A DNA stretch of 64,000 nt from Escherichia coli. GTDB taxonomy: Bacteria; Pseudomonadota; Gammaproteobacteria; Enterobacterales; Enterobacteriaceae. Position numbers and translations under genes: made by a program. Shown here piece after piece: positions 24,236 to 42,700 of this stretch (the first letter of the stretch is position 1; each line of letters opens with the position of its first letter). Below the pieces are notes generated by a model. That model was not told where the DNA came from. It did not search any database and saw only the letters and a list, made by a program, of their open reading frames with translations. The stretch is from assembly GCF_024700885.2 (NCBI RefSeq), contig NZ_CP117016.1. One strand, given 5' to 3'.

Positions 24236-25108
24236 ATGAATCCGTCTGATGCCATTGAGGCAATTGAAAAACCGCTCTCCTCCCTGCCTTACTCACTTTC
24301 CCGTCACATCCTGGAACATCTGCGCAAACTCACCAGTCACGAACCCGTGATTGGCATTATGGGTAAAAGCGGGGCCGGTAAATCCTCACTCTGTAATGCA
24401 CTGTTTCAGGGGGAGGTCACCCCGGTCAGTGATGTTCACGCCGGCACCCGGGAAGTGCGGCGCTTCCGTCTGAGTGGCCACGGTCACAGCATGATTATCA
24501 CTGACCTGCCCGGGGTGGGCGAGAGCCGGGACAGGGATGCAGAGTATGAAGCCCTGTACCGTGACATTCTGCCTGAACTTGACCTGGTACTGTGGCTGAT
24601 TAAAGCCGATGACCGTGCCCTGTCTGTGGATGAGTATTTCTGGCGACACATCCTGCACCGGGGACATCAGCAGGTGCTGTTTGTGGTGACGCAGGCCGAC
24701 AAAACGGAGCCCTGCCATGAATGGGATATGGCCGGCATTCAGCCTTCTCCCGCACAGGCACAGAACATTCGTGAGAAAACAGATGCGGTATTCCGGCTGT
24801 TCCGGCCCGTACATCCGGTTGTGGCCGTATCGGCCTGCACCGGCTGGGAACTGGATACGCTGGTCAGTGCGCTCATGACAGCGCTTCCCGACCATGCCGC
24901 CAGTCCCCTGATGACCCGCCTGCAGGACGAGCTGCGCACGGAATCTGTCCGGTCTCAGGCCCGTGAACAGTTTACCGGTGCGGTGGACCGGATATTTGAC
25001 ACGGCGGAGAGCGTCTGTATTGCCTCTGTTGCACGCACGGTTCTGCGTGCCGTCCGTGACTCGGTGGTCTCTGTTGCCCGCGCTGTATGGAACTGGATTT
25101 TCTTCTGA
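24236..25108 (+). CDS. YeeP/YfjP-family small GTPase (290 aa), apparently intact
   Basis: P-loop GIMGKSGAGKSSLCNALF, G3 DLPGVGES, G4 TQADK; lies upstream of flu as yeeP does in CP4-44. Confidence 0.75.
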   Translation: MNPSDAIEAIEKPLSSLPYSLSRHILEHLRKLTSHEPVIGIMGKSGAGKSSLCNALFQGEVTPVSDVHAGTREVRRFRLSGHGHSMIITDLPGVGESRDRDAEYEALYRDILPELDLVLWLIKADDRALSVDEYFWRHILHRGHQQVLFVVTQADKTEPCHEWDMAGIQPSPAQAQNIREKTDAVFRLFRPVHPVVAVSACTGWELDTLVSALMTALPDHAASPLMTRLQDELRTESVRSQAREQFTGAVDRIFDTAESVCIASVARTVLRAVRDSVVSVARAVWNWIFF

Positions 25109-25227
25109 ACACTCTGCCAGGGGAAATGCCTGATTACATTGCGTTAACCAACTGAAAACATGACACAAACACCTCATGCCCCTCCTGTTTCTCTTGCGTG
25201 ACTGCTCTGCTGTTAATAGAATAAAAC

Positions 25228-25263
25228 GATCGATAAAACAGGTATCGATCGTTACTATCGATC
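25228..25263 (+). promoter_or_regulatory. Three clustered GATC (Dam) sites in the flu leader: probable OxyR/Dam phase-variation switch
   Basis: GATC at 25228, 25247 and 25260, about 220 bp upstream of the flu ATG. Confidence 0.6.
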
Positions 25264-25480
25264 GTTTATAGTGGTTAATGGTCTGCGAAAAGGCAGCTGA
25301 ATCTCTTCATCATGCAGAACGGAATTGCACACAACGGACTGATACTTCTCTGGCGGATGAGAGAGGGGAAGCATTTATGTCCGGGAAAAACCACTTTATC
25401 TGACCATGCTGTTTTGTACCTGCCGGTATCCACATTTGTGGGTACCGGCTTTTTTATTCACCCTCTGTAAGGAAAAGCTG

Positions 25481-28327
25481 ATGAAACGACATCTGAACAC
25501 CAGCTACAGGCTGGTATGGAATCACATTACGGGCACCCTGGTGGTGGCTTCCGAACTGGCGCGCTCACGGGGAAAACGCACCGGTGTGGCGGTTGCGCTG
25601 TCTCTTGCTGCTGTCACGTCAGTCCCGGTACTGGCTGCTGACACGGTCGTACAGGCGGGAGAAACCGTGAGCGGCGGAACACTGACAAATCATGACAACC
25701 AGATTGTCTTCGGTACGGCCAACGGAATGACCATCAGTACCGGTCTGGAGTATGGGCCGGATAACGAGGCCAATACCGGCGGACAATGGATACAAAATGG
25801 CGGTATCGCCAACAACACTACTGTCACCGGTGGTGGTCTTCAGAGAGTGAATGCCGGAGGAAGCGTTTCAGACACGGTTATCAGTGCCGGAGGCGGACAG
25901 AGCCTTCAGGGGCAGGCAGTGAACACCACTCTGAACGGCGGTGAGCAGTGGGTACATGAAGGCGGGATTGCAACGGGTACCGTCATTAATGAGAAGGGCT
26001 GGCAGGCCGTCAAATCCGGCGCAATGGCAACCGACACGGTTGTGAATACCGGCGCGGAAGGGGGACCGGATGCAGAAAATGGTGATACCGGGCAGTTTGT
26101 TCGCGGAAATGCCGTACGTACCACTATCAATGAAAATGGTCGTCAGATTGTGGCTGCTGAAGGAACAGCAAATACCACTGTGGTTTATGCCGGCGGCGAC
26201 CAGACGGTACACGGGCATGCGCTGGATACCACACTGAATGGCGGTTACCAGTATGTGCACAACGGAGGCACAGCCTCTGACACGGTTGTAAACAGTGACG
26301 GCTGGCAGATTGTCAAGGAAGGTGGTCTGGCGGATTTCACCACCGTTAACCAGAAAGGCAAACTGCAGGTGAACGCCGGTGGTACAGCCACGAATGTCAC
26401 CCTGAAGCAGGGAGGCGCACTGGTCACCAGTACGGCGGCAACCGTCACCGGCAGCAACCGTCTGGGCAATTTCACTGTGGAAAACGGTAATGCTGACGGT
26501 GTTGTTCTGGAGTCCGGTGGTCGCCTGGATGTACTGGAGGGCCATTCAGCCTGGAAAACACTGGTGGATGACGGCGGAACCCTGGCAGTGTCTGCCGGTG
26601 GTAAGGCAACAGATGTCACCATGACATCCGGTAGTGCCCTGATTGCAGACAGTGGTGCCACTGTTGAGGGGACCAATGCCAGCGGTAAGTTCAGTATTGA
26701 TGGCACATCCGGTCAGGCCAGCGGACTGCTGCTGGAAAATGGCGGCAGCTTTACGGTTAATGCCGGAGGACTGGCCAGCAACACCACTGTCGGACATCGT
26801 GGAACACTGACGCTGGCTGCCGGGGGAAGTCTGAGTGGCAGAACACAGCTCAGTAAAGGTGCCAGCATGGTACTGAATGGCGATGTGGTCAGTACCGGCG
26901 ATATTGTTAACGCAGGGGAGATTCGCTTTGATAATCAGACGACACCGGATGCCGCGCTGAGCCGTGCTGTTGCAAAAGGCGACTCCCCGGTAACGTTCCA
27001 TAAACTGACCACCAGTAACCTCACCGGTCAGGGTGGCACCATCAATATGCGTGTTCGCCTTGATGGCAGCAATACCTCTGACCAGCTGGTGATTAATGGT
27101 GGTCAGGCAACCGGCAAAACCTGGCTTGCGTTTACAAATGTCGGAAACAGTAACCTCGGGGTGGCAACCTCCGGACAGGGTATCCGGGTTGTGGATGCAC
27201 AGAATGGCGCCACCACAGAAGAAGGTGCGTTTGCCCTGAGTCGCCCGCTTCAGGCCGGCGCCTTTAACTACACCCTGAACCGTGACAGCGATGAAGACTG
27301 GTACCTGCGCAGTGAAAATGCTTATCGTGCTGAAGTCCCCCTGTATACATCCATGCTGACACAGGCAATGGACTATGACCGGATTCTGGCAGGCTCCCGC
27401 AGCCATCAGACCGGTGTAAACGGTGAAAATAACAGCGTCCGTCTCAGCATTCAGGGCGGTCATCTCGGTCACGATAACAACGGCGGTATTGCCCGTGGAG
27501 CCACGCCGGAAAGCAGCGGCAGCTATGGCTTCGTCCGTCTGGAGGGTGACCTGCTCAGAACAGAGGTTGCCGGTATGTCTCTGACGACAGGGGTGCATGG
27601 TGCCGCAGGCCATTCTTCCGTTGATGTTAAGGATGATGACGGTTCCCGCGCCGGCACGGTCCGGGATGATGCCGGCAGCCTGGGCGGATACCTGAATCTG
27701 ACACACACGTCCTCCGGCCTGTGGGCTGACATTGTGGCACAGGGAACCCGCCACAGCATGAAAGCGTCATCGGACAATAACGACTTCCGCGCCCGCGGCT
27801 GGGGCTGGCTGGGCTCACTGGAAACCGGTCTGCCCTTCAGTATCACTGACAACCTGATGCTGGAGCCACAACTGCAGTATACCTGGCAGGGACTTTCCCT
27901 GGATGACGGCCAGGATAACGCCGGTTATGTGAAGTTCGGGCATGGCAGTGCACAACATGTGCGTGCCGGTTTCCGTCTGGGCAGCCACAACGATATGAGC
28001 TTTGGTGAAGGCACCTCATCCCGTGACACCCTGCGCGACAGTGCAAAACACCGTGTGCGTGAACTGCCGGTGAACTGGTGGGTACAGCCTTCTGTTATCC
28101 GCACCTTCAGTTCCCGGGGTGACATGAGCATGGGGACAGCCGCCGCCGGCAGTAACATGACGTTCTCACCGTCCCGGAATGGCACGTCACTGGACCTGCA
28201 GGCCGGACTGGAAGCCCGTGTCCGGGAAAATATCACCCTGGGCGTTCAGGCCGGTTATGCCCACAGTGTCAGCGGCAGCAGCGCTGAAGGTTATAACGGT
28301 CAGGCCACGCTGAATGTGACTTTCTGA
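25481..28327 (+). CDS. flu: Antigen 43 autotransporter adhesin (948 aa)
   Basis: [35 protein letters not shown]... signal/passenger repeats and C-terminal beta-barrel ending ...GQATLNVTF. Confidence 0.9.
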
Positions 28328-28397
28328 TAATCAGGTCACTCTCCTTCAGGCCCCGGTCATCATGACCGGGGCTTTTTACTTTCAGGGAGCAACAGAT

Positions 28398-28556
28398 ATG
28401 CCGGGTTGTACATCACGTTTATTGCCCGAAGGCCCTTTCTCACGCGAACAGGCTGTTGCCGTCAAAACAGCTTACCGCAATGTATTTACTGAAGATGACC
28501 AGGGAACATATTCCCGGCTGGTTATCCGTAATGCTGAAGGTCAGTTGCGCTGGTGA
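28398..28556 (+). CDS. Small hypothetical protein (52 aa)
   Basis: ORF with AGGGAG RBS between flu and the DUF932 gene. Confidence 0.35.
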
Positions 28557-28710
28557 TGCCGGAACACAGCTTAATACTCAGCTCGCCAGTTAAGGGCTTC
28601 TCAGACAATAAACGTCATTCATTTCATCTGTCAGGCCGCGTCTTCTCCGGGAGACGCAGCTTTTTCATTTATTACACCAGTAAATCGTAACCACCGATAA
28701 GGAGCAAATT

Positions 28711-29529
28711 ATGCGACTAGCCAGTCGTTTTGGTTATGCGAACCAGATACGCCGTGACCGTCCGCTGACACACGAAGAACTGATGCACTATGTTCCCAGT
28801 ATTTTCGGTGAAGACCGGCATACTTCCCGCAGTAAACGATATGCGTACATTCCCACCATCACCGTACTGGAAAGCCTGCAGCAGGAAGGTTTTCAGCCAT
28901 TCTTCGCCTGCCAGACCCGCGTGCGCGACCCGGGCCGCCGGGGATACACAAAACACATGCTGCGTCTGCGGCGGGCCGGAGAGATAAACGGAGAACATGT
29001 CCCTGAAATTATTCTGCTCAACTCTCATGACGGTACCTCCAGCTACCAGATGCTGCCGGGTTACTTCAGATTCGTCTGCCAGAATGGCTGCGTCTGCGGT
29101 CAGTCTCTGGGGGAAGTGCGTGTTCCACACCGGGGAAATGTGGTGGAGAAAGTTATCGAAGGGGCTTACGAAGTGGTGGGGGTTTTTGACCGGATTGAGG
29201 AAAAGCGTGATGCCATGCAGTCGCTGGTCCTGCCGCCACCGGCACGCCAGGCGCTGGCACAGGCGGCACTGACTTACCGTTATGGTGACGAACATCAGCC
29301 AGTCACCACCGCTGACATTCTGACGCCACGACGCCGGGAGGATTACGGTAAGGACCTGTGGAGTACTTATCAGACCATCCAGGAGAATATGCTGAAAGGC
29401 GGGATTTCCGGCCGCAGTGCAAAAGGAAAACGTATCCACACCCGTGCCATTCACAACATCGACACCGATATTAAGCTCAACCGCGCATTGTGGGTAATGG
29501 CAGAAACGCTGCTGGAGAGCCTGCGCTGA
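28711..29529 (+). CDS. DUF932-family protein (YfjQ/YafZ-like)
   Basis: Position and sequence typical of CP4-type prophage DUF932 proteins. Confidence 0.6.
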   Translation: MRLASRFGYANQIRRDRPLTHEELMHYVPSIFGEDRHTSRSKRYAYIPTITVLESLQQEGFQPFFACQTRVRDPGRRGYTKHMLRLRRAGEINGEHVPEIILLNSHDGTSSYQMLPGYFRFVCQNGCVCGQSLGEVRVPHRGNVVEKVIEGAYEVVGVFDRIEEKRDAMQSLVLPPPARQALAQAALTYRYGDEHQPVTTADILTPRRREDYGKDLWSTYQTIQENMLKGGISGRSAKGKRIHTRAIHNIDTDIKLNRALWVMAETLLESLR

Positions 29530-29870
29530 TGCAGCATGTCCCTGAAGGCGTGATTCAGGCACCAGAATCACCCGACGCCCCGGAGGCGCTGCCGGGGTGT
29601 CGTTCCATTTCTGATGATGACCTGTGCGCCTGGTGTACCCGTCTGCTTTACCGTCCCGGAGAAATCAGTCTGTGCAGACTGAGTATACAGGCAATGGCAT
29701 CTGGCCATCCGTCTGTGACCGGAACGGTTACGCGTACGGCTGTCCGGAATTTCAGCCGAATATCATTCATCCCTGATATTACCGGGTCATCACGGTCAGT
29801 GATGAACGTGATGTTGCCAGGTCCCGACCTTTACTCCCTCTCATTTATTCACATTACAAGGATTTCATAC

Positions 29871-30344
29871 ATGAAAACATTGTCTCAGAACACCACCTCT
29901 TCGGCCTGTGCACCGGAGACTGACCTGCAACAACTGGTTGCCACCCTCGTCCCTGATGAACAGCGCATCAGCTTCTGGCCGCAGCACTTTGGCCTCATTC
30001 CACAGTGGGTGACCCTGGAGCCCCGTGTCTTCGGCTGGATGGACCGTCTGTGCGAAGACTACTGCGGTGGTATCTGGAATCTGTACACCCTGAACAACGG
30101 CGGGGCATTTATGGCACCCGAACCGGATGACGATGATGACGAAACATGGGTACTGTTCAATGCCATGAACGGTAACCGCGCTGAAATGAGTCCGGAAGCT
30201 GCCGGCATTGCTGCCTGTCTGATGACGTACAGTCATCATGCCTGTCGTACGGAGTGTTATGCCATGACGGTCCATTATTACCGGCTGCGGGATTACGCCC
30301 TGCAGCATCCGGAATGCAGCGCCATTATGCGCATCATCGACTGA
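29871..30344 (+). CDS. Antirestriction protein, KlcA/ArdB-like (YfjX family)
   Basis: MKTLSQNTTSSACAPETDLQQLVATLVPDEQRISFWPQHFG...; upstream frame open to 29490 but homology begins here. Confidence 0.65.
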   Translation: MKTLSQNTTSSACAPETDLQQLVATLVPDEQRISFWPQHFGLIPQWVTLEPRVFGWMDRLCEDYCGGIWNLYTLNNGGAFMAPEPDDDDDETWVLFNAMNGNRAEMSPEAAGIAACLMTYSHHACRTECYAMTVHYYRLRDYALQHPECSAIMRIID

Positions 30345-30359
30345 ATGGAGAGAAGTACA

Positions 30360-30836
30360 ATGCAACAGCTTTCCTTTCTGCCCGGAGAGATGACGCCCGG
30401 CGAGCGCAGCCTCATTCAACGGGCCCTGAAAACCCTGGACCGCCATCTTCATGAACCCGGCGTGGCCTTCACCTCCACCCGTGCGGCACGAGAATGGCTG
30501 ATTCTGAACATGGCGGGACTGGAGCGTGAAGAGTTCCGGGTGCTGTATCTGAACAACCAGAATCAGCTGATTGCCGGTGAAACCCTCTTCACCGGCACCA
30601 TCAACCGCACGGAAGTCCATCCCCGTGAAGTGATTAAACGCGCCCTGTATCACAATGCCGCTGCTGTGGTGCTGGCACACAATCACCCGTCCGGTGAAGT
30701 CACACCCAGCAAGGCAGACCGCCTTATCACGGAACGTCTGGTACAGGCACTGGGCCTGGTGGATATCCGGGTGCCGGACCATCTGATAGTCGGTGGCAGC
30801 CAGGTTTTCTCCTTTGCCGAATATGGTCTGCTTTAA
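30360..30836 (+). CDS. RadC-like JAB-domain protein (YeeS/YkfG family)
   Basis: JAMM motif HNHPSGEVTPSKADRLIT; GGAGAG RBS. Confidence 0.75.
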   Translation: MQQLSFLPGEMTPGERSLIQRALKTLDRHLHEPGVAFTSTRAAREWLILNMAGLEREEFRVLYLNNQNQLIAGETLFTGTINRTEVHPREVIKRALYHNAAAVVLAHNHPSGEVTPSKADRLITERLVQALGLVDIRVPDHLIVGGSQVFSFAEYGLL

Positions 30837-30898
30837 CCCGTCACAACCACATCACACCTGTTTTCACTTTTATCTTCTGTCTTCAGAGGTATCCCACT

Positions 30899-31120
30899 AT
30901 GAAAATCATCACCCGTGGCGAAGCCATGCGTATTCACCGTCAGCATCCGGCATCCCGTCTTTTTCCGTTCTGTACCGGCAAATACCGCTGGCACGGCAGT
31001 GCTGAAGCGTATACCGGTCGTGAAGTGCAGGATATTCCCGGTGTGCTGGCCGTGTTTGCAGAACGCCGTAAGGACAGTTTTGGTCCGTATGTCCGGCTGA
31101 TGAGCGTCACCCTGAACTGA
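30899..31120 (+). CDS. YeeT-like DUF987 protein (73 aa)
   Basis: Position and size as yeeT upstream of cbeA. Confidence 0.6.
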   Translation: MKIITRGEAMRIHRQHPASRLFPFCTGKYRWHGSAEAYTGREVQDIPGVLAVFAERRKDSFGPYVRLMSVTLN

Positions 31121-31282
31121 TGTTCCGTCACCCGGAAAACGAGTACGACTGGCTGAGCTCAGACGCCGCTGTGGATGAGGCCCTGCTCATCAACGAATAC
31201 ACCTTCACCGAAGCCGGTCTGTGCACCGGCTGACCCGTCATCGTTAAACTATCATTCACCGATTTTCTGTGAGGATTTTATC

Positions 31283-31651
31283 GTGTCAGACACACTTTCC
31301 GGGACAACGCATCCCGATGACAATGACGACCATCCCTGGTGGGGACTACCCTGCACAGTGACGCCCTGTTTCGGCGCCCGTCTGGTGCAGGAGGGTAACC
31401 GGTTGCATTACCTTGCCGACCGTGCCGGTATCAGAGGCCGGTTCAGAGATGCGGATGCGTACCCTCTGGACCAGGCCTTTCCGCTGCTGATGAAACAACT
31501 GAAATTAATGCTCACCAGTGGTGAACTGAATCCCCGCCATCAGCATACCGTGACACTGTATGCGAAGGGGCTGACCTGTGAAGCCGACACCCTCGGCTCC
31601 TGTGGTTACGTTTATCTGGCTGTTTATCCGACACCTGAAACGAAAAAGTAA
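31283..31651 (+). CDS. cbeA: CbeA/YeeU-family antitoxin (122 aa), GTG start
   Basis: [50 protein letters not shown]...; GAGGA RBS before GTG. Confidence 0.75.
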
Positions 31652-31740
31652 ACCACCAGAATAACCTTCTGCTCCGGCCTGGTGTTTTCACCACGCCACT
31701 GTCCCATTTTTTATCTCTGCATATCAGGAAAATCTTCAGT

Positions 31741-32115
31741 ATGAAAACATTACCCGACACGCATGTACGGGAGGTATCGTGCTGCCCGTCTCCCGTCACC
31801 ATCTGGCAGACACTGCTCACCCGGTTACTGGACCAGCATTACAGCCTTACGCTGAATGACACACCGTTCGTGGATGAACGCGTGATTGAGCAGCATATTG
31901 AGGCAGGCATTTCACTGTGTGATGCAGTGAACTTTCTCGTGGAAAAATACGCACTGGTACGAACTGACCAGCCGGGATTCAGCGCAGGAGCCTCGTCGCA
32001 GTTAATCAACAGCATTGATATTCTCCGGGCTCGCCGGGCAACAGGCCTGATGACCCGCCACAACTACAGAACGGTGAACAATATCACCCTGGGTAAGTAT
32101 CCGGAGGCGAAATGA
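31741..32115 (+). CDS. cbtA: CbtA/YeeV-family toxin (124 aa)
   Basis: [43 protein letters not shown]...; follows the antitoxin. Confidence 0.75.
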
Positions 32116-32603
32116 TGAAACTGGCCCTGACACTGGAAGCCGACAGTGTTAACGTACAGGCACTGAATATGGGGCGAATTGTCGTTGACATTGATGGTGT
32201 TAATCTCGCTGAACTGATTAACATGGTCTGCGATAACGGCTACTCCCTTCGTGTTGTTGATGAATCTGACCGGACCTCAGCAGACTGCACGCCACCATTT
32301 GTTGCCCTTACCGGCATACGCTGCAGTACCGCACATATCACGGAAACGGACAACGCCTGGCTGTACTCGCTGTCACACCAGACCAGTGACTTCGGTGAAT
32401 CAGAATGGATTCATTTTACCGGTACCGGTTATCTGTTACGTACCGATGCGTGGTCATACCCGGTTCTGCGGCTTAAGCGCCTGGGGCTGTCAAAAACGTT
32501 CCGTCGTCTGGTCGTCACACTCATCCGGCGTTATGGTGTCAGTCTCATTCATCTGGATGCCAGTGCCGGATATCTGCCGGGTTTACCCACTTTCGACTGG
32601 TAA
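32112..32603 (+). CDS. YeeW-like hypothetical protein (163 aa)
   Basis: Start overlaps cbtA stop (ATGA); position as yeeW in CP4-type elements. Confidence 0.5.
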
Positions 32604-32619
32604 TCCGGAAATTCACAAC

Positions 32620-32796
32620 ATGAAATCATTAACCACGGAAACAGCGCTGGATATTCTGATTACGTGGCTGCAGGACAATATCGACTGCGAATCGGGAATT
32701 ATCTTCGACAACGATGAGGATAAAACAGGTTCGGCAGCACTGTTGCGCTGTATCGAACAGGCCAGGGAGGGTATCCGTACCCTGCGCCAACAGTAA
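32620..32796 (+). CDS. Small hypothetical protein (58 aa)
   Basis: MKSLTTETALDILITWLQDNIDCESGIIFDNDEDKTGSAALLRCIEQAREGIRTLRQQ. Confidence 0.4.
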   Translation: MKSLTTETALDILITWLQDNIDCESGIIFDNDEDKTGSAALLRCIEQAREGIRTLRQQ

Positions 32797-33706
32797 CTTT
32801 TGCACCAGAACCAGTGAAGATCACTCACCCGATTTCACTTCCCTGACGTCAGCCTGAACACGGCTGGCGTTTTCATTTATAAACAGAAAGGAAAAATGAT
32901 GATGTCAGATACCACACTCTCCCGCCCGGAGGTGGTCAGCGGGCATACGGACGTTATCTATTCCACCTCAGTCTGCCACATTCTGGCTGTACGAAAGAGT
33001 ACACTGTTGCCAATCGACACAATTATCCGGCATCAAGTAAGCGATATCAGTTAACCGATATAGATGGGGAAGATGCTTTTATCCGGATTGGTTCTATCGC
33101 GATGGTGCGAGTACCACTTGATGCAATGGAGCCTGTCGAGGAAGATGACGAGTAACAGAGCTCGGTATCTCAATCAGGACCTGATTGTCCTGGTTCGATG
33201 CCGAAAACCAGTGATTTTTCGTGTTGGTATCTGTGTTGGTATAGGATGGTGTTGTTTATTATTAACAATTTTAAATCATGAGGTTAAATCGCATGTTTGA
33301 GTCCGGCCTTCGCACCACATCGTATGCAAATCGAGTCGCTCAAGGGCGGCTTTTTTTGTGCCTGTGTTTTCACTACTTTGTTTGTATGTAACGCTGATAA
33401 TCTAAGAACTTCGGAAGCCCCATTCCCATCAATGATGTTCATTCATCATCCTGAAAATTAAGTAGATATAAAACTTCATTGCCTTGGTCTAATGGCTCAG
33501 GAAATAGATTGCATTTAGCGAGTGGCATTCTTAATGTGCCATTGTTTAGCCATGAAACGATGCGTAAAATTGCTGATTTTATGTGTCAAAGGCCCGCAAC
33601 CGGAGATGTCCTTACTTCAAGGATCAACCACTATTGGCGTATCCTTTTACTATCTTGATTCAATTCAGCAGGTTATCGTCAAAAGTACAGCGAAGAGAGA
33701 GAAAAG

Positions 33707-36598
33707 ATGATTGGTACAACACCTTATCATGCGAAATATTTTGCGCATGAACTTTCCATTCTCCATTCAAACAATGGGGTGGACCGTCTGTCTCAATCGC
33801 TGTTTGATGCAAGCGTAGATCTAAATCCTCATCAAATTGAGGCGGCTCTTTTTGCTATTGAAAATCCGCTAAGCAAAGGTGTTGTGCTTGCCGATGAAGT
33901 TGGTTTAGGTAAAACCATTGAAGCGGGGTTAGTGCTTTGCCAGTTGTGGGCTGAAAGAAAACGTAAACTGTTGATCATTTGTCCTGCTTCACTGCGTCGC
34001 CAATGGGCGAGCGAGTTACAGGAAAAGTTCAATCTACCTTCTCAGGTGTTGGACGCGAAAACGTATAGCCAGCTTCAAAAAGAAGGGATCCATAATCCCT
34101 TAAATAATAAATCGATCACTATCATGTCATACCACTATGCTGCTCGGTTAGAAGAAAAATTGGTGGCTGAAATGTGGGATCTGGTTGTTATCGACGAAGC
34201 CCATAAACTGCGTAATGCTCATCGAGAAAGTAACAAAATGGGGCAAGCGTTAAAGCGTGCGCTTGATGGGCGGAAAAAATTACTACTGACCGCAACGCCT
34301 TTACAGAATTCGTTAATGGAACTGTATGGCATGTCGACGCTTATAGATGAACATACCTTCGGCGAAGTTAAAGCGTTCAGAAAGCAATATATGCAGGCAG
34401 ATAGCGATATTGCGGAGTTGAAGGGGCGATTGTCGCGTTTTATCAAACGAACTTTACGCAAGAATGTGCTGGAGTACATCAAGTATACAGAACGTAAAGC
34501 GATCACTATTCCTTTCTATCCGAGCGAACAGGAGCAGGATCTTTATGAACGCGTACAAAAATTGCTTGAACGTGAGGATAGCTATGCCTTACCAAAACGA
34601 CACCGGCATCTGACGGGGCTTATTCTCAGAAAGCTACTTTCCTCAAGTACGAAAGCTGTATTGAATAACTTGCAGATCCTTAAGAGTCGTTTAGAAAGGT
34701 TAAAGCTGGAAGGTATCGTTGAAGATGATATGAACATCATCCAACAGATCATAATGGATGACGATCTTGAAGATGACATCGTGGAAGATGCCGAATCAGT
34801 GGCTTTAGATACCGAGTGCAAAGTTGTCGATTCAGACGCGCTTCAGGCAGAAATCAATGAGCTGGAATCACTCATTGTCAAAGCAGAACAGATTGGCACT
34901 GATACCAAATCAAAAGAGTTGCTTTCTGGCCTGGAGCAAGGTTTTGCACAGCTTGCCGAAATGGGGGCTGCAAAAAAAGTCATCATCTTCACGGAGTCAA
35001 TGCGAACTCAACAGTATCTTGCACATTTTCTGGAAAACAATGGCTACCAGGGGAAAGTAGTAACCTTTAGTGGCACAAACAATACACCGCAGGCAAACAA
35101 GATCTACCAGCAATGGCGCGAGGAATATCAGGGATCTTCTCGTATTACCGGGTCGGCGCAAATTGATAAACGCTCGGCTTTGATCGACCACTTCAAAGAT
35201 CATGCTGAAATCATGATAGCTACAGAAGCTGCAGCTGAAGGGGTGAACCTGCAATTTTGTTCGCTACTGATCAATTACGATTTACCCTGGAACCCACAAC
35301 GCATTGAACAGCGTATTGGACGTTGTCACCGATACGGGCAAAAATTTGATGTGGTTGTTATTAACTTCCTCAATCAGCGAAACCAGGCCGATCAACGCGT
35401 TCTTGAACTCTTAACTGAAAAGTTCAGCCTGTTTGATGGCGTGTTTGGCGCATCGGATAGTGTGCTTGGCAGCATAGAAAATGGTGTGGATTTTGAAAAA
35501 AGGATCCAGTCAATTTATGAGTCATGCCGTACCCCCGAGGAGATAGAGCTGGCTTTTGAAAGGTTGCAGAAAGAGCTGGAAGATGAAATCAATCTCAAGA
35601 TGCAGAAGACGCAAGAACAGTTGCTTGAGCATTTTGATGAAGATATTCACGATATCCTTAAAATAAGGCTTGATGAAGCTCGGGAGCGTCTGGATAAAGT
35701 CGGTCGTTGGTTTTGGGCCGTGACCTGTCAGCAGCTCAAACAATATGCTGATTTTGATCATGAGCATCATCGTTTCACTTTACGTGAATCAGTAAATGAA
35801 CTGCCTGTCGGGCAGTACCAGCTGTTGCGCAAAGATGGTAGGCAAAATAGTGCGTTACAAATGCAGGATCACCACAGTTTTGCATATCGGATCAATCATC
35901 CGCTGGGTGAGTACGTCATTGAGGGGGCTAAGGTCCAGGAGACGAAAACAGCTGAAGTCATCTTCGATTACAGTAACCACACAACGAAAGTCTCGGTGGC
36001 TGAGCAGCTGAAAGGGCAATCAGGGTGGTTAACACTAAATTTGCTTACTGTTGATGCGTTTAACAGGCAGCAATTTTTAGTCTTTACCGCAAAAACTGAC
36101 AACGGACGTGTGGTAGATGGTGAAGCTTGTAAACGTCTGTTCAACTTGTCTGCAATAACCAACGAAAAGCTGGATAATTCGGCAAGTTCAGATGCATTAC
36201 CTGATGACTTGATCTTACTCAAGAACAGGCAAATTGACGCCAGACTTGCGGAAGTTCTGGAGCAGAACAATGTCCTTTTTGAAGCTGAAAGAGATAAGCT
36301 GGAAAAATGGGCTGAAGATATGATCTTTGCGGCGGAAGAAGCATTACGCGATACCAAAATGCAAATCAAGTCGTTAAAGCGAGAAGCCAGACTGGCGCAA
36401 TCGATGGAAGAACAAAAGCAAAACCAGGAAAAGCTGAAGCTACTGGAACGGCAGCAGAAACGCCAACGTATGGAAATTTTTGACATTGAAGATGAGATCG
36501 CTGACAAGCGGGATGAACTCATCAGTGCCCTTGAAGAGCGGATGAAGCAAAAAACGGATATCACCGAGCTTTTTTCCATCCGCTGGAAAGTTATTTAA
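33707..36598 (+). CDS. SNF2-family DEAH-box ATPase/helicase (963 aa) with C-terminal coiled-coil tail
   Basis: Walker A DEVGLGKT (33893-33916), motif II VVIDEAHKLRN (DEAH 34193-34204), motif III LLLTATPLQNS, helicase-C NLQFCSLLINYDLPWNPQRIEQRIGRCHRYGQ; AGAGAGA RBS. Confidence 0.85.
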   Translation: MIGTTPYHAKYFAHELSILHSNNGVDRLSQSLFDASVDLNPHQIEAALFAIENPLSKGVVLADEVGLGKTIEAGLVLCQLWAERKRKLLIICPASLRRQWASELQEKFNLPSQVLDAKTYSQLQKEGIHNPLNNKSITIMSYHYAARLEEKLVAEMWDLVVIDEAHKLRNAHRESNKMGQALKRALDGRKKLLLTATPLQNSLMELYGMSTLIDEHTFGEVKAFRKQYMQADSDIAELKGRLSRFIKRTLRKNVLEYIKYTERKAITIPFYPSEQEQDLYERVQKLLEREDSYALPKRHRHLTGLILRKLLSSSTKAVLNNLQILKSRLERLKLEGIVEDDMNIIQQIIMDDDLEDDIVEDAESVALDTECKVVDSDALQAEINELESLIVKAEQIGTDTKSKELLSGLEQGFAQLAEMGAAKKVIIFTESMRTQQYLAHFLENNGYQGKVVTFSGTNNTPQANKIYQQWREEYQGSSRITGSAQIDKRSALIDHFKDHAEIMIATEAAAEGVNLQFCSLLINYDLPWNPQRIEQRIGRCHRYGQKFDVVVINFLNQRNQADQRVLELLTEKFSLFDGVFGASDSVLGSIENGVDFEKRIQSIYESCRTPEEIELAFERLQKELEDEINLKMQKTQEQLLEHFDEDIHDILKIRLDEARERLDKVGRWFWAVTCQQLKQYADFDHEHHRFTLRESVNELPVGQYQLLRKDGRQNSALQMQDHHSFAYRINHPLGEYVIEGAKVQETKTAEVIFDYSNHTTKVSVAEQLKGQSGWLTLNLLTVDAFNRQQFLVFTAKTDNGRVVDGEACKRLFNLSAITNEKLDNSASSDALPDDLILLKNRQIDARLAEVLEQNNVLFEAERDKLEKWAEDMIFAAEEALRDTKMQIKSLKREARLAQSMEEQKQNQEKLKLLERQQKRQRMEIFDIEDEIADKRDELISALEERMKQKTDITELFSIRWKVI

Positions 36599-36603
36599 TT
36601 GAT

Positions 36604-39600
36604 TTGAAAGAGAAAATAATGAGTAAGTACAACGAATTAGTTAAGAAGCTAAAAGAAATTTTTCAGATTGATCGACCAGAACTGGATTTCGGTATTTATC
36701 GTATTTTAAATGCACGTGCTGATGAAATTAACGACTATCTGGATAATAAGCTGAAGGCCAAAATCCAGTCTGCGCTGGCGGATGCAGGAAATGCCAATAA
36801 ATCAGAATTAGAACATCAGTTGCAACTGACAATAAAAGCGGCAACTGATGCGGGTGTGGACCCTGCTGATAGCCCGAAAGTACAGGAGCTTAAAAAGCAA
36901 CTGGCGGCTATGGCATCCGGAGCAAATGAGCATGAAAATGCAGTATTTTCCCATCTGCTGACTTTCTTTTCGCGTTATTATGACAACGGCGATTTTATCA
37001 GCAAACGCCGTTATAAAGGTAATACCTACGCCATCCCTTATTCTGGCGAAGAAGTGATGTTGCACTGGGCAAATAAGGACCAGTACTACATTAAAAGCGG
37101 TGAAAACTTTGCTAATTATTCATTTAAATTAGATGATGGTCGTAAAGTTAGCTTTAAATTGCTCGCAGCGGACACAGCAAAAGATAACCGTAAAGATAAT
37201 GAATTAGATCGCTGCTTTGTACTTATTGAGCCGCATGTTCGTACCAAAATTGATGAAGAAGGCGATGAGTACGAACAAGAATATAAGCCAGTAGAAGTGG
37301 TGAAAACTTCATCTGTGGTTGACGGTAAACTCGTTGAAACAGAAGAGTTAGTTATTCACTTCGAATATAAGGCCATGAAAAAGGGCACTAAGCAGGATGC
37401 TTTAGTGCAGTCCGCTATTTCAACAATTCTGGCTGATAAAACAGTTCAACAGCATTGGGTTGATCTTGCTAAACGTGCGCCAACAGAAAAAAATCCGTCA
37501 CGTACAGAGTTGGAGCGTCATCTTACAACTTATACCCAGCGTAATACAGCAGACTACTTTATTCATAAAGATCTCGGTGGTTTTTTAACTAACGAACTGG
37601 ATTTTTATATTAAAAATGAAGTAATGAATCTCGATAATGTGCAAAATGCAGAAGTGTTTGCCAATATTGAGAAACAATTGCGCATGATTCAATGTTTGCG
37701 TACTGTTGCGCTGGAACTCATTGCATTTTTGGCACAAATTGAGAATTTCCAGAAGAAACTTTGGACTAAGAAGAAGTTTGTTGTTTCAAGTAATTACTAT
37801 ATTACTATGGACAAAATAAGTTCAGAGTTTTACAGTGAAATAATTAATAATGAAAAAATAGTCCAAGAATGGATTGAATTAGGCATCTTAGATGAGAAGC
37901 CATCTACCTCTGATGTGGAGTTGCTCAAGTTTGCAACAGTTAATTTATCTCATTTAAACGGAGATCTAAGGAAAAAAATATTAAATAGTATCAATGATAT
38001 TGACGATAATGTTGATGGCGTTTTTATTAATGGTGATAATTATCAAGCGTTAAATCTTTTGAAGAAAAAATATAATTCCGTAATTGATTGTGTCCATATA
38101 GATCCACCATATAACACAGATACTAGTGGTTTTTTATATAAAAATAGCTTTAAGCATTCAAGTTGGCTGAGTATGATGGATAGCCGTTTGCTTTTTGTTA
38201 AAAATTTACTCAGTGAAAATGGTGTATTTTTTTGTCATATTGATGAAAATGAATATGAGCGACTTTATTTAATTAATAAACAGTTAGGTCTTATCGATGC
38301 AGGGACAATTATTTGGGATAAACGCAATCCCATGAATGGTGGTAGTGGCATTGCGATTCAACATGAATATACTACTTGTTTTACAAAGAACATGATTTCT
38401 ATTAATAAGAAAAATGAGAATGTATTAGAAATACTCGAATATGCAAAATTAATTAAGAATAAATATCCTGTAATTAACAGTGAAGCAAAGAAAAAATTTT
38501 ATGATTGGGTAACAAAGAATAAAAAACTTACTGGAGGTGAACAAGCTTACAAATATATCGATGAGAAAGGTCGAGTGTACCAGAGTGTCAGCCTCCGTGC
38601 CCCAGAGCCAAGGACTGACAAGAAATTCTATATACCATTAATTCATCCAGTTACCGGGAAACCATGCGCTATGCCACCAAATGGTTTTTCTCGTACCCCA
38701 GAAACATTAAAAGATATGATGGATAAGGGGGATATACTATTTGGTGTTGATGAAACAACGCAACCTAGACAGAAAGCATATTTATATGCTGACGCTAAAA
38801 AGCAAATAACATCAATAATTCAGGATGCTAAAAAAGGAAAAACTCAAACAACTCATCTTGGAATTGATTTTCCTTATTGTCACTCAACTTCTTTATATAA
38901 TTATTTAATTGGGAGTGCATCTCATAATAAAAATGAGATAATATTAGATTTTTTTGCTGGTTCAGGAACAAGTGGCCACTCAGTCATAGAGTTGAATCGT
39001 AAGGATGCGGGTTCAAGGAAATATATACTTGTTGAACAGGGGGAGTATGCACAAAATGTAACTTTAAGCAGGTTGAGAAAAGTTATATTCAGTAGCAATT
39101 GGAAAGATGGTAAAGCTATGGATTCAACGACAGGCTCATCTCATATACTTAAAGTTATGAAAATAGAAAGTTACGAAGATGTATTAAATAGCCTTCGATT
39201 TGAACAACAAAAAGAAATAAAAGATCTTTTTGATACAGTGAATGAATCAGTAGCAAATGAGTATTTAATAAAATATATGCTTGAAACAGAAAGCAAAGGT
39301 TCACTACTCAGTACTGATAATTTCAAAAAACCATTTAACTACGAAATGGATATTGCGACGGATTCCGCCGGTGCCACTGAGCGTAAAAACATCGATTTAG
39401 TTGAAACTTTCAACTATCTCATTGGTTTACATGTGAAATCCATCGAATCCAATATCGAACGTGGCTATGTGCGTGTTGAAGGAATGCTACCAACAGGCGA
39501 GCGTACCCTTATTCTGTGGCGCGATTGCGACAAGATCGGTTATGAAGAATTGAATAAATATGCCAACCGATTCGATTTATATGCAAAAGAAAACACGTTC

Positions 39601-39741
39601 GACGTTATCTATATCAATGGCGATCATAACTTACCTACCGCCTTTACTGTTGATGAAGAAGACGGCGAGATTGTTCGTAGCCTGAAAATCCGCCAGATCG
39701 AACCTGAATTCTTGAACCTGATGTTTGCGGAGGAGGTTTAA
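36604..39741 (+). CDS. Large beta-class DNA methyltransferase (N6-adenine/N4-cytosine type; 1045 aa) with about 490-aa N-terminal extension
   Basis: Motif IV HIDPPYNTD (38101-38112) precedes motif I ILDFFAGSGTSG (38951-38977), the order seen in Type III Mod; starts 6 bp after the SNF2 stop. Confidence 0.8.
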   Translation: MKEKIMSKYNELVKKLKEIFQIDRPELDFGIYRILNARADEINDYLDNKLKAKIQSALADAGNANKSELEHQLQLTIKAATDAGVDPADSPKVQELKKQLAAMASGANEHENAVFSHLLTFFSRYYDNGDFISKRRYKGNTYAIPYSGEEVMLHWANKDQYYIKSGENFANYSFKLDDGRKVSFKLLAADTAKDNRKDNELDRCFVLIEPHVRTKIDEEGDEYEQEYKPVEVVKTSSVVDGKLVETEELVIHFEYKAMKKGTKQDALVQSAISTILADKTVQQHWVDLAKRAPTEKNPSRTELERHLTTYTQRNTADYFIHKDLGGFLTNELDFYIKNEVMNLDNVQNAEVFANIEKQLRMIQCLRTVALELIAFLAQIENFQKKLWTKKKFVVSSNYYITMDKISSEFYSEIINNEKIVQEWIELGILDEKPSTSDVELLKFATVNLSHLNGDLRKKILNSINDIDDNVDGVFINGDNYQALNLLKKKYNSVIDCVHIDPPYNTDTSGFLYKNSFKHSSWLSMMDSRLLFVKNLLSENGVFFCHIDENEYERLYLINKQLGLIDAGTIIWDKRNPMNGGSGIAIQHEYTTCFTKNMISINKKNENVLEILEYAKLIKNKYPVINSEAKKKFYDWVTKNKKLTGGEQAYKYIDEKGRVYQSVSLRAPEPRTDKKFYIPLIHPVTGKPCAMPPNGFSRTPETLKDMMDKGDILFGVDETTQPRQKAYLYADAKKQITSIIQDAKKGKTQTTHLGIDFPYCHSTSLYNYLIGSASHNKNEIILDFFAGSGTSGHSVIELNRKDAGSRKYILVEQGEYAQNVTLSRLRKVIFSSNWKDGKAMDSTTGSSHILKVMKIESYEDVLNSLRFEQQKEIKDLFDTVNESVANEYLIKYMLETESKGSLLSTDNFKKPFNYEMDIATDSAGATERKNIDLVETFNYLIGLHVKSIESNIERGYVRVEGMLPTGERTLILWRDCDKIGYEELNKYANRFDLYAKENTFDVIYINGDHNLPTAFTVDEEDGEIVRSLKIRQIEPEFLNLMFAEEV

Positions 39742-39743
39742 GA

Positions 39744-42700
39744 ATGGCTAAAAAACCGACCACCGGTAAAGCTGTTAAAAAAGAGACAAACAGCAAACTG
39801 AGCTTTCATAAGCAACTGGTTTTGAACCGCTTTATGTTCCATTTTTTTAAAGATGGCACATTGCAAGGTTTAAAAAATCGGTTAGGTGAAGATCGCTTTG
39901 AAGGCATCCATGAAGATGGCCAAAGCTTGTTCTTCCATGAGCTGAGTAACTATTTATTCGAGGTCGATCTTATCGATCTCGATGAACTGCGTCGTTACGA
40001 TCTCAATATCGTACAGCACTGGCAGCAGATAACTGAGCACCGTAATCGCAAAGAAGACACCGTGCTGAATATGAAATATTTTCAGTACTTGTCGCTTCTG
40101 TTTACCGAGATCTACCTGGACTGGTACTTCAATCGTAAACAGCAATTACTCGATGGGCTAAATAACGAGCTGGCAGCATACAATGCTGAAAATGATAAAA
40201 CAGCAAAAGACCGGGCTAATCAGTTCAAATCATACATTCTAGATGACTTGAATAAACTTGCATACTGGAACGCTACCGGTTCGGGTAAAACACTGCTATT
40301 GCATGTCAATATTTTGCAATATTTACATTATTTCCAGAACGGTAATACCCACCATTACCCGGATAAAATCATCCTGCTTACGCCGGATGAACGCCTGTCG
40401 AAGCAACATTTAGATGAGCTGGAAAACTCAGGATTTACCCAATACCAGTTATTCGATAAGAGTAAATCTGCGCCCTTCAAAGGCACGATTGAAGTTATTG
40501 ATATCAATAAACTTGCCGATGAAATGGGTGACAAAACTGTTGCCGTTGAGGCATTTGAAGGCAACAATCTGGTTCTGATTGATGAAGGGCATAAAGGCAC
40601 CGGAAGTGCTGCTGGTGCCTGGATGCGCCGTCGTGACAAATTAACACGTGACGGATTTGCGTTTGAATATTCAGCAACTTTTGGCCAGGCAGTAGCCGGT
40701 GGCAATAATGTTGAGGCAGTTGAAACAGAAATTCAGAAGAAAAAAGCAAAGCTGCTTTTTGAAACAACGGCCTTAGGTAAACTGAACGAAGAAGAGTTAG
40801 CGCAAATAGCATTAACCAGCGAAGAAAAACGAGATGCGCGTATTCAGGCGACGCGAGAGGTCTATGGAAAATCGATTCTGTTCGATTACTCCTATAAATT
40901 CTTCTATGAGGATGGTTATGGTAAAGAATCACTGATTCTTAACCTTAATCCTGAAGAGGATAAAAAAGATGAGCGTCGGTATGAGTATTTTACCGCGTGT
41001 TTGCTCAGCTTTTATCAGCAACAATATTTATTCAATAAGAATAAAGAAAAATTAAGTGAATTTAATATCGAAAAACCGCTGTGGGTTTTTGTCGGTAATA
41101 CGGTAAGTGGTGAAGATTCAGACATTCACGCAGTATTGCGTTTTTTAGCATGGTTTTTAAACCACGAAACGCAGGCAAAAGCGTGGATTAACGATCTCAT
41201 TAAAAATAAAGCGCGAATCCTCGATACCAAAGAGCGTAACATTTTTGAAAATCGCTTTACTGCACTAATGAACGCTCCGGAAGATATCTACGCAGATATT
41301 CTTTCTCGCTTGTTTAACACCACTCACTCTGGTCAGCGACTGCGAGTTCTGAATTTAATAGGCAGTAAAGGTGAACTGGCATTACAGGTTGGTGAGGCCG
41401 AACCGTTTGGCCTTATCAATATTGGTGATGCACCGTCTCTTTACAAAATGTGTGAAGAGGATACGACATTTGATTATCAGAGAGATGATTTTGCAAAGTC
41501 ACTCTTTCATACGTTAAATGACAAAGACTCGCGACTACATATTTTGATCGGCTCGCGAAAATTTACTGAAGGCTGGAGCAGTTGGCGCGTCTCAACGATG
41601 GGATTGCTCAATATGGGCCGTGGAGAAGGTTCACAGATCATTCAGTTATTTGGTCGTGGCGTACGCCTTAAAGGTCGCAATTATTCTTTGAAACGCAGTA
41701 CACCCGGTGAGCGTCCGAAAGGGTTGCATCTGGAAAAATTAGAGACACTGAATGTATTCGGTGTACGTGCCGATTACATGGCAACCTTTAAACAATACCT
41801 GGAAGATGAAGGGATTACGCCAAGTGACGAGATCCTTGAGCTGAATTTTGAAACTCGGCCAAATATGCCAGCAACCAGGCTTAAAACACTTAAGCTTAAA
41901 GATGGTTATAAAGATAATCAAAGACTCGGCTTTAAACGTGTCTATTTTCCCGAATTGTATGAAGTTCCTGCTGATTTTCAGGGGAAAATTAAGCAGCCGC
42001 ATATTAAGCTGGACTTATACCCGAAACTTGAGTCGATTGATACCAGCAGAAAAGGGGACAATACTCCGGTTAACGTGCGCAATGAAGCGAAGTTAGATTA
42101 TAAAATCATTAGTGCATTTGATTTTGATCGGCTTTATCTCGCCATTCAGAATTATAAACTACAACGCGGCTGGTCAAATTTACGTGTGGATAAACAACGT
42201 TTGATCGACTTTTGTACCGGTAAGACAAAGATCGGAAATAGTTGGTATACCCTTTTGATTCCAGCTTCAGAGCTTGAGATTAAGCAATATGCAGATATTG
42301 CTAAGCAGGAAGATATTATGCTTCGTCTGCTGACTGATTATACTGATCGCTTTTACAACACCTTGAAAAATGCTTATGAAGGTCAGTTTTATGAAGTCAC
42401 GCAGGTGAAAGAAGATGATCCTGGTATGATCAAAATGTACCATTTCGAGATCGAAGAAACTGATGATGGGTTGGCTTATGCCAGTCGGCTGGAACAATTA
42501 CAACAATTGGTCATCGACGGCGAAATCGGTAAAGCAAAATCCTGGAGTGCATCCGGGATGGTTGCTATTACCTTTGATAAACATCTCTATTACCCGCTTC
42601 TTTCGATTGAAAAAAATGCCAATATACCGCTAAAAATGCGACCGGCAGCACTTGGTGCGCCAAGCGAGATTACTTTTGTTCAGGATCTTCAGTCTTTTGT

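Follow-up and report, generated by a model that had tools for sequence, protein, structure and literature searches.

A predicted type IV CbeA/CbtA toxin-antitoxin pair in the terminal module of an Escherichia coli leuX island

We analysed a toxin-antitoxin (TA) pair carried on a 64,000-nucleotide stretch of Escherichia coli DNA (contig NZ_CP117016.1; hereafter the window). Our results make it very probable that the pair is a canonical, intact type IV CbeA/CbtA (YeeU/YeeV) toxin-antitoxin system, that it sits in the fixed terminal module of an island at leuX, and that the nearby restriction-modification (R-M) operon is a separate cargo. The pair is already known: proteins identical to those of the window are present in RefSeq, relatives have been characterised by experiment, and the genomic context has been published. 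Indeed, the TA family has been characterised since 2003-2017, and the window pair is one of thousands of near-identical copies. The features on which the analysis rests are as follows (coordinates are those of the window).

25226-25462: IsrC sRNA (Rfam RF00124), 5' of Ag43
ends at 28327, + strand: Ag43 gene, a member of the module
between Ag43 and DUF932, + strand: frameshifted DUF905 remnant (RefSeq/Pfam listing)
28711-29529, + strand: DUF932 gene (Pfam; RefSeq of the identical E24377A locus)
29871-30344, + strand: ArdB/KlcA-type antirestriction gene (Pfam; E24377A RefSeq)
30345-30836, + strand: RadC-like JAB gene (Pfam; E24377A RefSeq)
30899-31120, + strand: DUF987/YeeT gene (Pfam; E24377A RefSeq)
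31271-31275, + strand: cbeA ribosome-binding site GAGGA, 7 nt 5' of the GTG
31283-31651, + strand: cbeA (yeeU-type) antitoxin open reading frame, GTG start, TAA at 31649-31651, 122 aa
31652-31740, + strand: cbeA-cbtA spacer, 89 nt
31726-31729, + strand: AGGA (ribosome-binding) of cbtA, inside the spacer
31741-32115, + strand: cbtA (yeeV-type) toxin open reading frame, ATG start, TGA at 32113-32115, 124 aa
32112-32603, + strand: DUF5983 gene (full-length YeeW-type), 163 aa
32620-32796, + strand: small open reading frame of 58 aa, the last module gene; a DUF957 domain protein according to RefSeq
32845-32871, + strand: terminator-like hairpin with T-rich tail that closes the co-directional string (consensus scan only)
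32902-33155: DUF4942-like and HTH pseudogene fragments downstream of the module (RefSeq)
33299-33366, + strand: remnant of the leuX tRNA 3' end, GAGTCCGGCCTTCGCACCA (remnant proper 33299-33317), then a hairpin resembling the leuX terminator and a T run

Both genes of the pair lie on the + strand, cbeA first and cbtA second, with the antitoxin gene 5' of the toxin gene across a gap of 89 nt. CbeA matched Pfam PF06154 (CbeA_antitoxin) over its full length (178.7 bits versus a gathering cut-off of 27, E 3.8e-53), while CbtA matched PF06755 (CbtA_toxin) over model positions 1-112 of 112 (201.8 bits versus a cut-off of 25, E 2.5e-60). CbeA also matched solved structures of YeeU/YfjZ, including the YeeU crystal structures (PDB 2inw, E 4.7e-75; 2h28, E 6.8e-74) together with PDB 2jn7 and 2ea9 (E about 1e-42 each). 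Alignment to the three K-12 pairs, which the preliminary description had proposed as a check, gave CbeA identities of 89% to K-12 CbeA/YeeU, 61% to YafW and 64% to YfjZ, and CbtA identities of 85% to K-12 CbtA/YeeV, 59% to YkfI and 63% to YpjF. Because these values are 89%/85% for YeeU/YeeV versus 59-64% for YafW/YkfI and YfjZ/YpjF, protein alignment assigns the pair to the YeeU/YeeV (CbeA/CbtA) subtype. In the identical locus of strain E24377A, RefSeq lists the antitoxin as WP_001295723.1 (YeeU family antitoxin) and the toxin as WP_000854765.1. A scan of CbeA, CbtA and DUF5983 matched no NCBIfam model, and in PHROGs the same three proteins gave weak matches only, to families without an assigned function. 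A tblastn search found a single TA copy within the window. The preliminary description, made from the sequence alone, had named the family and reported two intact genes of 122 and 124 aa in canonical order with a GTG-initiated antitoxin; open reading frames, Pfam, alignments and RefSeq agreed with it throughout.

We considered the position of the cbeA start, as an in-frame ATG at 31175 would extend the product to 158 aa. This ATG was rejected. The start context of K-12 cbeA, ATCGTGTCAGAC, is the same as that of the window gene, the E24377A RefSeq annotation begins at the identical GTG (31283), and the crystallised YeeU chains align to window CbeA from residue 1. Since these three observations agree, the GTG is taken as the predicted true and canonical start of cbeA. 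A promoter scan returned 6 matches versus 5.5 expected by chance, none of them convincing directly 5' of cbeA, and because of this we infer that cbeA and cbtA are expressed within a longer operon.

The spacer can form the hairpin GGCCUGGUG-UUUU-CACCACGCC. Its predicted RNA fold has an energy of -19 kcal/mol, with a mild z score of -2.1. In an alignment that includes about 10 flanking nt per side, the spacer was 95% identical by column to that of K-12, whereas identity of the flanking coding sequences was lower, at 89% and 82%. Spacers of 88-89 nt are typical of the CbtA subtype; those of the YkfI and YpjF loci measure 20 nt (PMC5371832). At a permissive E-value, Rfam matched nothing in or around the TA pair between 24 and 34 kb; IsrC (RF00124) was the sole match in this interval.

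We next examined the residues linked to target choice. In K-12, CbtA binds the H6/H7 loop of FtsZ, blocking division, and the flat face of MreB, blocking elongation (PMC5624674). The F65S substitution in K-12 CbtA abolishes FtsZ binding and R15C abolishes MreB binding, and the protein is non-toxic only as the F65S R15C double mutant (PMC5624674). F65, the FtsZ determinant, is retained in window CbtA and is invariant among the four paralogues. At residue 15 window CbtA has Cys, where K-12 CbtA has Arg. We surveyed both positions in 70 near-full-length cluster representatives taken from the homologue search: F65 was present in 69 of the 70, while residue 15 was Cys in the majority (47/70) and Arg in 19/70. 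Cys15 accompanies an N-terminal variant of the form PDTHVRE..S.C, which is that of the window, and Arg15 accompanies the K-12 CP4-44 variant, PVLPGQAASSR. Residues 82-85 form a second variable patch (GASS in the window versus CTRS in K-12 CbtA). Because this patch assorts independently of the N-terminal variant, the CbtA alleles are mosaics. Arg15, which was defined as an MreB determinant in K-12 CbtA only, is specific to the K-12 allele rather than a residue that defines the CbtA family, since Cys15 is the majority natural state and is found in YkfI and YpjF as well.

These comparisons argue well for FtsZ as a target of window CbtA. Targeting of MreB by its allele class is probable: YpjF, which has Cys15, nevertheless binds MreB, and a C15R change in YpjF or YkfI is without effect (PMC5624674). 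Dual targeting is not assured for window CbtA, because it has Cys15 and R15C abolishes MreB binding in K-12. A rather unlikely reading is that natural Cys15 alleles, that of the window included, act on FtsZ alone (division-only toxins), in contrast to the K-12 allele with its two targets. We found no solved structure of CbtA. An AF2 model consists of helices only, apart from an unstructured stretch at residues 1-17, and puts F65 in a helix spanning residues 59-73; its confidence is low (pLDDT 68.8), too low for a fold comparison to be informative.

By analogy with K-12, to whose tested proteins those of the window are 85-89% identical, the 124-aa toxin would bind FtsZ at the H6/H7 loop and probably also MreB at the flat double-filament face, thereby blocking division and elongation. 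K-12 CbeA is described as neutralising CbtA in the type IV manner: it does not bind the toxin but instead binds the polymers of FtsZ and MreB and bundles them (Masuda 2012, as relayed in PMC5624674). The 122-aa window antitoxin would likewise leave the toxin free and bundle FtsZ and MreB polymers, making them toxin-resistant. On the same identity, over-expressed window CbtA is predicted to be toxic, giving lemon-shaped or filamentous cells, and CbeA to rescue cells from it. As to what the pair does for its host, only modest oxidative-stress and biofilm phenotypes have been reported for chromosomal CbtA/CbeA (PMC5371832); element maintenance or modulation of stress and physiology seems to us the most likely role.

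We then asked how widely the pair is distributed. Many complete E. coli genomes, E24377A among them, carry a locus whose DNA is 100% identical to the 833-bp TA stretch; the annotations there read 'type IV toxin-antitoxin system YeeU family antitoxin' for the first gene and 'TA system toxin CbtA family protein' for the second. Of 5426 complete E. coli genomes, 4926 contained related TA DNA, almost always on the chromosome and with three sites per genome as the median; in only 79 of those genomes was the TA contiguous with the SNF2/Type III R-M operon found in the window. Complete E. coli genomes contain roughly 13,400 CbtA-type loci in total, and the multi-copy count agrees with the published variation in CbtA copy number among genomes (PMC10790755). 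Among 50,697 phage records, a tblastn search with CbtA gave one match only, to a 3.2-kb fragment; CbtA is thus not a typical phage gene.

The pair might instead be a relic left by a prophage-like element that has decayed, and be devoid of present function. Decay is evident nearby: collinear E24377A retains only a pseudogene of the island integrase, IS elements are abundant, and the neighbouring DUF905, DUF4942 and HTH genes are reduced to fragments. Against this, both TA reading frames are intact and have good ribosome-binding sites, the same sequence recurs in many unrelated strains, and the key residue F65 is kept, as described above. Moreover, codon differences from K-12 are mostly synonymous in both cbeA (21 synonymous to 13 non-synonymous) and cbtA (32 to 18), an excess consistent with purifying selection. 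We regard the relic explanation as extremely unlikely, and retain the view that the pair is an intact TA system.

The pair is embedded in a module whose genes all run in one direction, in the order Ag43, DUF932, antirestriction, RadC, DUF987, CbeA, CbtA, DUF5983 and DUF957; the 58-aa reading frame that RefSeq assigns to the last of these (32620-32796) has no match in current Pfam. Positions 24556-32903 of the window are collinear with the K-12 element CP4-44, from yeeP to just past yeeW. The CP4-44 pair resembles that of the window in its GTG start, gene order, 88-89-nt spacer and F65, and the two elements share the ATGA overlap of yeeW/DUF5983, the upstream yeeS (RadC) and yeeT (DUF987), and Ag43 with IsrC sRNA. 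They differ in that DUF932 and the antirestriction gene occupy the place of CP4-44 yeeR, in that DUF5983 is full length (163 aa) in the window but truncated to 64 aa (yeeW) in CP4-44, and in the site of the element, which is leuX in the window and the CP4-44 site in K-12. The YafW/YkfI (CP4-6) and YfjZ/YpjF (CP4-57) pairs belong to the same two Pfam families, have toxins with Cys15 and F65, follow the same order of DUF932, antirestriction, RadC, DUF987, antitoxin and toxin, and, like the window pair, lie near the attachment site of their element (PMC5624674; PMC5371832). They are unlike it in their 59-64% identity, their 20-nt spacer and the lack of a DUF5983 gene after the toxin. In addition, the YkfI and YpjF toxins lack 11 C-terminal residues of window CbtA, and the YafW and YfjZ antitoxins lack 14-15 N-terminal residues of window CbeA.

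The gene that follows cbtA raised the question of whether the functional unit comprises three proteins, CbeA, CbtA and DUF5983, the last acting as a regulator, second antitoxin, chaperone or toxin sensor. The DUF5983 ATG overlaps the cbtA stop codon (ATGA), an arrangement conserved in K-12, which suggests that DUF5983 is translationally coupled to cbtA. DUF5983 directly followed CbtA in 6/6 CbtA-subtype loci inspected, the two form a recurrent pairing in a pan-genome TA survey (PMC10790755), and a preprint reports that DUF5983 and ANF00264 proteins consistently adjoin cbtA/cbeA (10.64898/2026.06.09.728211). The family is narrow (a search of 1.84 billion representatives yielded 219 clusters at E <= 1e-3), and its members have two domains that are separable in nature and a conserved motif, GIxCSTAHITxxDN. 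An AF2 model of DUF5983 is confident (pLDDT 87) and shows the two domains, and a fold comparison of this model found no known fold relative. However, K-12 yeeW is cut to 64 aa, and cloned CbtA and CbeA nonetheless behave as a full toxin-antitoxin system (PMC5624674, PMC5371832). DUF5983 is also missing from the YkfI and YpjF loci, and adjacency and coupling by themselves do not demonstrate a function for it. Because the K-12 copy is truncated and the gene is absent from the YkfI and YpjF loci, DUF5983 is not essential for TA function, although a modulatory role is possible. We therefore judge a three-protein functional unit to be rather unlikely, and prefer the two-gene CbeA/CbtA system. Similarly doubtful is a broader scheme of a three-part CbtA module in which DUF5983 would tune or trigger CbtA, with the terminal module stabilising the boundary of the leuX island beside defence hotspot #37.

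We next turned to the boundary of the island. The leuX remnant at 33299-33317 has one G deleted relative to leuX, and the alignment to the K-12 leuX 3' end and its downstream sequence runs on to about 33366. The remnant is unique in the window and had no match in 100 shuffles. It lies about 500 bp past the last module gene and about 1.2 kb downstream of cbtA, and the same leuX repeat occupies the same relative position in 5/5 other loci compared. About 55 kb upstream in E24377A, whose genome is collinear, lies leuX, and after it a degraded tyrosine integrase gene (a pseudogene). Because the leuX 3' end is found here and leuX with the degraded integrase there, we interpret the repeat as an attR-like sequence that bounds the TA-bearing island. 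GC content falls at this boundary from 51-60% to 30-45%. Among all complete E. coli genomes, 5058 matched part of the junction (32600-33720), and only 97 of them ran on into the operon side. In sampled genomes that have the island end but lack the operon, homology stopped at 33316-33366; in more distant variants of the module it stopped before 33316. No second leuX repeat was found downstream of the R-M operon within the window.

CP4-44 collinearity, the leuX repeat, and leuX with the integrase pseudogene in E24377A place the pair in a P4-like element near its attachment site, as is the case for the homologous K-12 pairs, which reside in P4-like prophages near attachment sites (PMC5371832). 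The pair would accordingly be a fixed gene set of the accessory module that is conserved at the terminus of a P4-like (CP4-type) integrative island, here inserted at tRNA-leuX. This module would form the end of the island away from the integrase, with about 500 bp between its last gene and the attR-like repeat. In mobile elements that carry defence systems, RadC/ArdB and CbtA/CbeA modules have been reported to occupy the end away from the integrase, beside a direct repeat (PMC12458937, preprint). The window module resembles these terminal 'moron' modules (RadC/ArdB, CbtA/CbeA and DUFs; PMC12458937) in this respect. Unlike those elements, in which cargo lies between integrase and module, the window has its restriction operon outside the leuX repeat, between the repeat and nanS/nanM/nanC. 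The conserved CbeA-CbtA-DUF5983-DUF957 string plus the leuX repeat thus provides a landmark for the outer edge of the leuX island. The restriction/defence cargo that starts directly past that edge is strain-specific, and the landmark helps to delimit the neighbouring candidate defence operon.

The cargo past this boundary varies, and five different cargoes were present downstream of it in the sampled genomes. The following were recorded.

Window and E24377A: DrmD-like SNF2, Type III Mod and Type III Res, then a phosphorothioate-dependent restriction enzyme
SE15 and strain 439: Type IIS R-M (Alw26I/Eco31I/Esp3I family) and McrBC
Ec-2844: Type I HsdRSM, DUF4942 and McrB; its CbeA and CbtA proteins are identical to those of the window
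TW08637: restriction-enzyme remnant and HNH endonuclease

The leuX locus is known as E. coli defence hotspot #37 (PMC12707154, PMC10121019), at which defence systems differ between strains, as they do here, and which carries defence genes in 97% of isolates (PMC12707154). Because the leuX repeat is present, leuX lies upstream in the collinear genome, and five cargoes occur downstream of the boundary, we identify the locus as this leuX-anchored hotspot with strain-variable cargo. In the operon next to the module, PADLOC matched DrmD (1e-199), MTase_III and REase_III; none of its models was matched by CbeA, CbtA or DUF5983. The preliminary description had put the pair about 1.6 kb from the candidate defence operon, in agreement with the measured distance (33707 - 32115 = 1592 nt), and had proposed that its presence adds to the defence-island character of the segment. 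The latter view held for the segment, which is hotspot #37, but not for the TA pair, which is a fixed island module inside the leuX repeat with no PADLOC match.

We also weighed whether the TA pair could be genuine defence cargo, that is, an anti-phage abortive-infection module working with or backing up the restriction operon. The pair lies 1.6 kb from the DrmD-like and Type III R-M operon and the phosphorothioate-dependent restriction enzyme, the same module abuts restriction-type genes in 4/5 other genomes sampled, and some TA systems, type IV AbiE included, defend against phage (PMC3985639, PMC7438911). In contrast, PADLOC has no model for the three proteins, and our literature search found no paper reporting anti-phage activity of CbtA/CbeA; matches to 'CbTa…' were mostly to Clostridium botulinum Tad1, which is unrelated to CbtA, and were set aside. 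Furthermore, this operon adjoins the TA in just 79 genomes as against the 4926 with related TA DNA at a median of three copies, and the pair, on the island side, is separated from the operon by both the leuX repeat and the drop in GC. Where the same module ends in K-12, core genes follow and no defence system is present. A defence role of this kind is, in our assessment, very unlikely. Since the pair lies inside the leuX repeat and the SNF2/Type III R-M operon lies outside it, the TA pair belongs to the constant island end that borders the hotspot rather than to the variable defence cargo. The operon is best explained as a separate, lower-GC cargo just outside the boundary with no functional tie to the pair. 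What the TA pair indicates is the edge of a mobile element; by itself it is no evidence of defence.

Two further features of the module were noted. A 37-aa reading frame at 31120-31233 was rejected as a likely gene; it has no Pfam match, and differs from its counterpart in SE15 by 11 non-synonymous versus 1 synonymous changes. The frame is unannotated, overlaps the DUF987 stop codon as TGATG, and is open in 6/6 loci compared, E24377A included. A second terminator-like hairpin, a consensus match only, is located after Ag43.

The leuX-integrated island that ends in the CbeA/CbtA module is bounded by the following feature:

33299-33366: a remnant of the tRNA-leuX 3' end, GAGTCCGGCCTTCGCACCA, with one G deleted, then a hairpin resembling the leuX terminator and a T run

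GC content falls at this position, and homology ends here for E. coli genomes that share the same island end without the SNF2/Type III restriction-modification (R-M) operon. The feature at 33299-33366 is an attR-like island boundary.

From the leuX repeat to nanS/nanM/nanC (33400-45000), comparison with loci L008-L012, taken from other E. coli genomes at the same boundary, demonstrates a variable defence hotspot. Past this one common boundary, the cargo takes five forms among the strains sampled. Three are R-M systems: Type III beside a DrmD-like helicase, Type IIS together with McrBC, and Type I together with McrB. The other two are an HNH endonuclease and a phosphorothioate-dependent restriction enzyme. 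This variation agrees with published hotspot #37. Within the window, the hotspot carries the following genes:

33707-43124 (+): three-gene operon
43786-44715 (-; 43786-44658 in RefSeq): ORF annotated by RefSeq, at the identical E24377A locus, as a phosphorothioated-DNA-binding restriction endonuclease

The operon has a GC content of 30-45%. Its SNF2 helicase (963 aa) has DrmD as top PADLOC match (E 1e-199), while the Type III methyltransferase (1045 aa) and restriction subunit (1126 aa) both gave full-length PADLOC matches; no DrmA, DrmB or DrmC gene accompanies the three genes. The operon resembles a Type III R-M system supplemented with a DISARM-type helicase more than it resembles classical DISARM. 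The minus-strand ORF matched HNH and Type IV methyl-directed restriction entries in PADLOC, and is followed by pseudogene fragments of HNH and sialate O-acetylesterase genes.

We likewise compared the toxin, CbtA (31741-32115), with homologues P0003-P0120. CbtA alleles are mosaics: the N-terminus occurs as two variants, PDTHVRE..C15 and PVLPGQAASSR15, each found in free combination with several states at residues 82-85 (GASS, CTRS, GAPS and others). Since Cys15 is the majority state among these proteins, the R15 determinant, defined by experiment in K-12, is an atypical one. The cbeA-cbtA spacer (31652-31740) displayed 95% column identity to K-12, compared to a lower 89% and 82% for the flanking coding sequences, and contains a small GC hairpin; it may be a regulatory element.

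Two small ORFs lie around the pair:

31120-31233 (+): unannotated 37-aa ORF, overlapping the DUF987 stop as TGATG
32620-32796 (+): 58-aa ORF, DUF957 by RefSeq annotation

The 37-aa frame was open in all six loci compared, and lies in a stretch (31121-31258) for which BLAST gives no match in K-12 CP4-44. With 11 non-synonymous codon changes to 1 synonymous relative to SE15, and no Pfam match, it probably does not encode a conserved protein. The 58-aa ORF, which lacks a match in current Pfam, NCBIfam and PHROGs, may correspond to AntiFam entry ANF00264, argued in a 2026 preprint to be a real, cbtA/cbeA-associated protein.

Further upstream lie:

25226-25462 (+): IsrC sRNA (Rfam RF00124 'IS102', 74.6 bits)
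25406-28327 (+): Ag43/Cah-family autotransporter gene
about 28398-28593: frameshifted DUF905 remnant, after the autotransporter gene

IsrC sits directly upstream of the autotransporter gene, whose start it overlaps; K-12 CP4-44 has the same arrangement.
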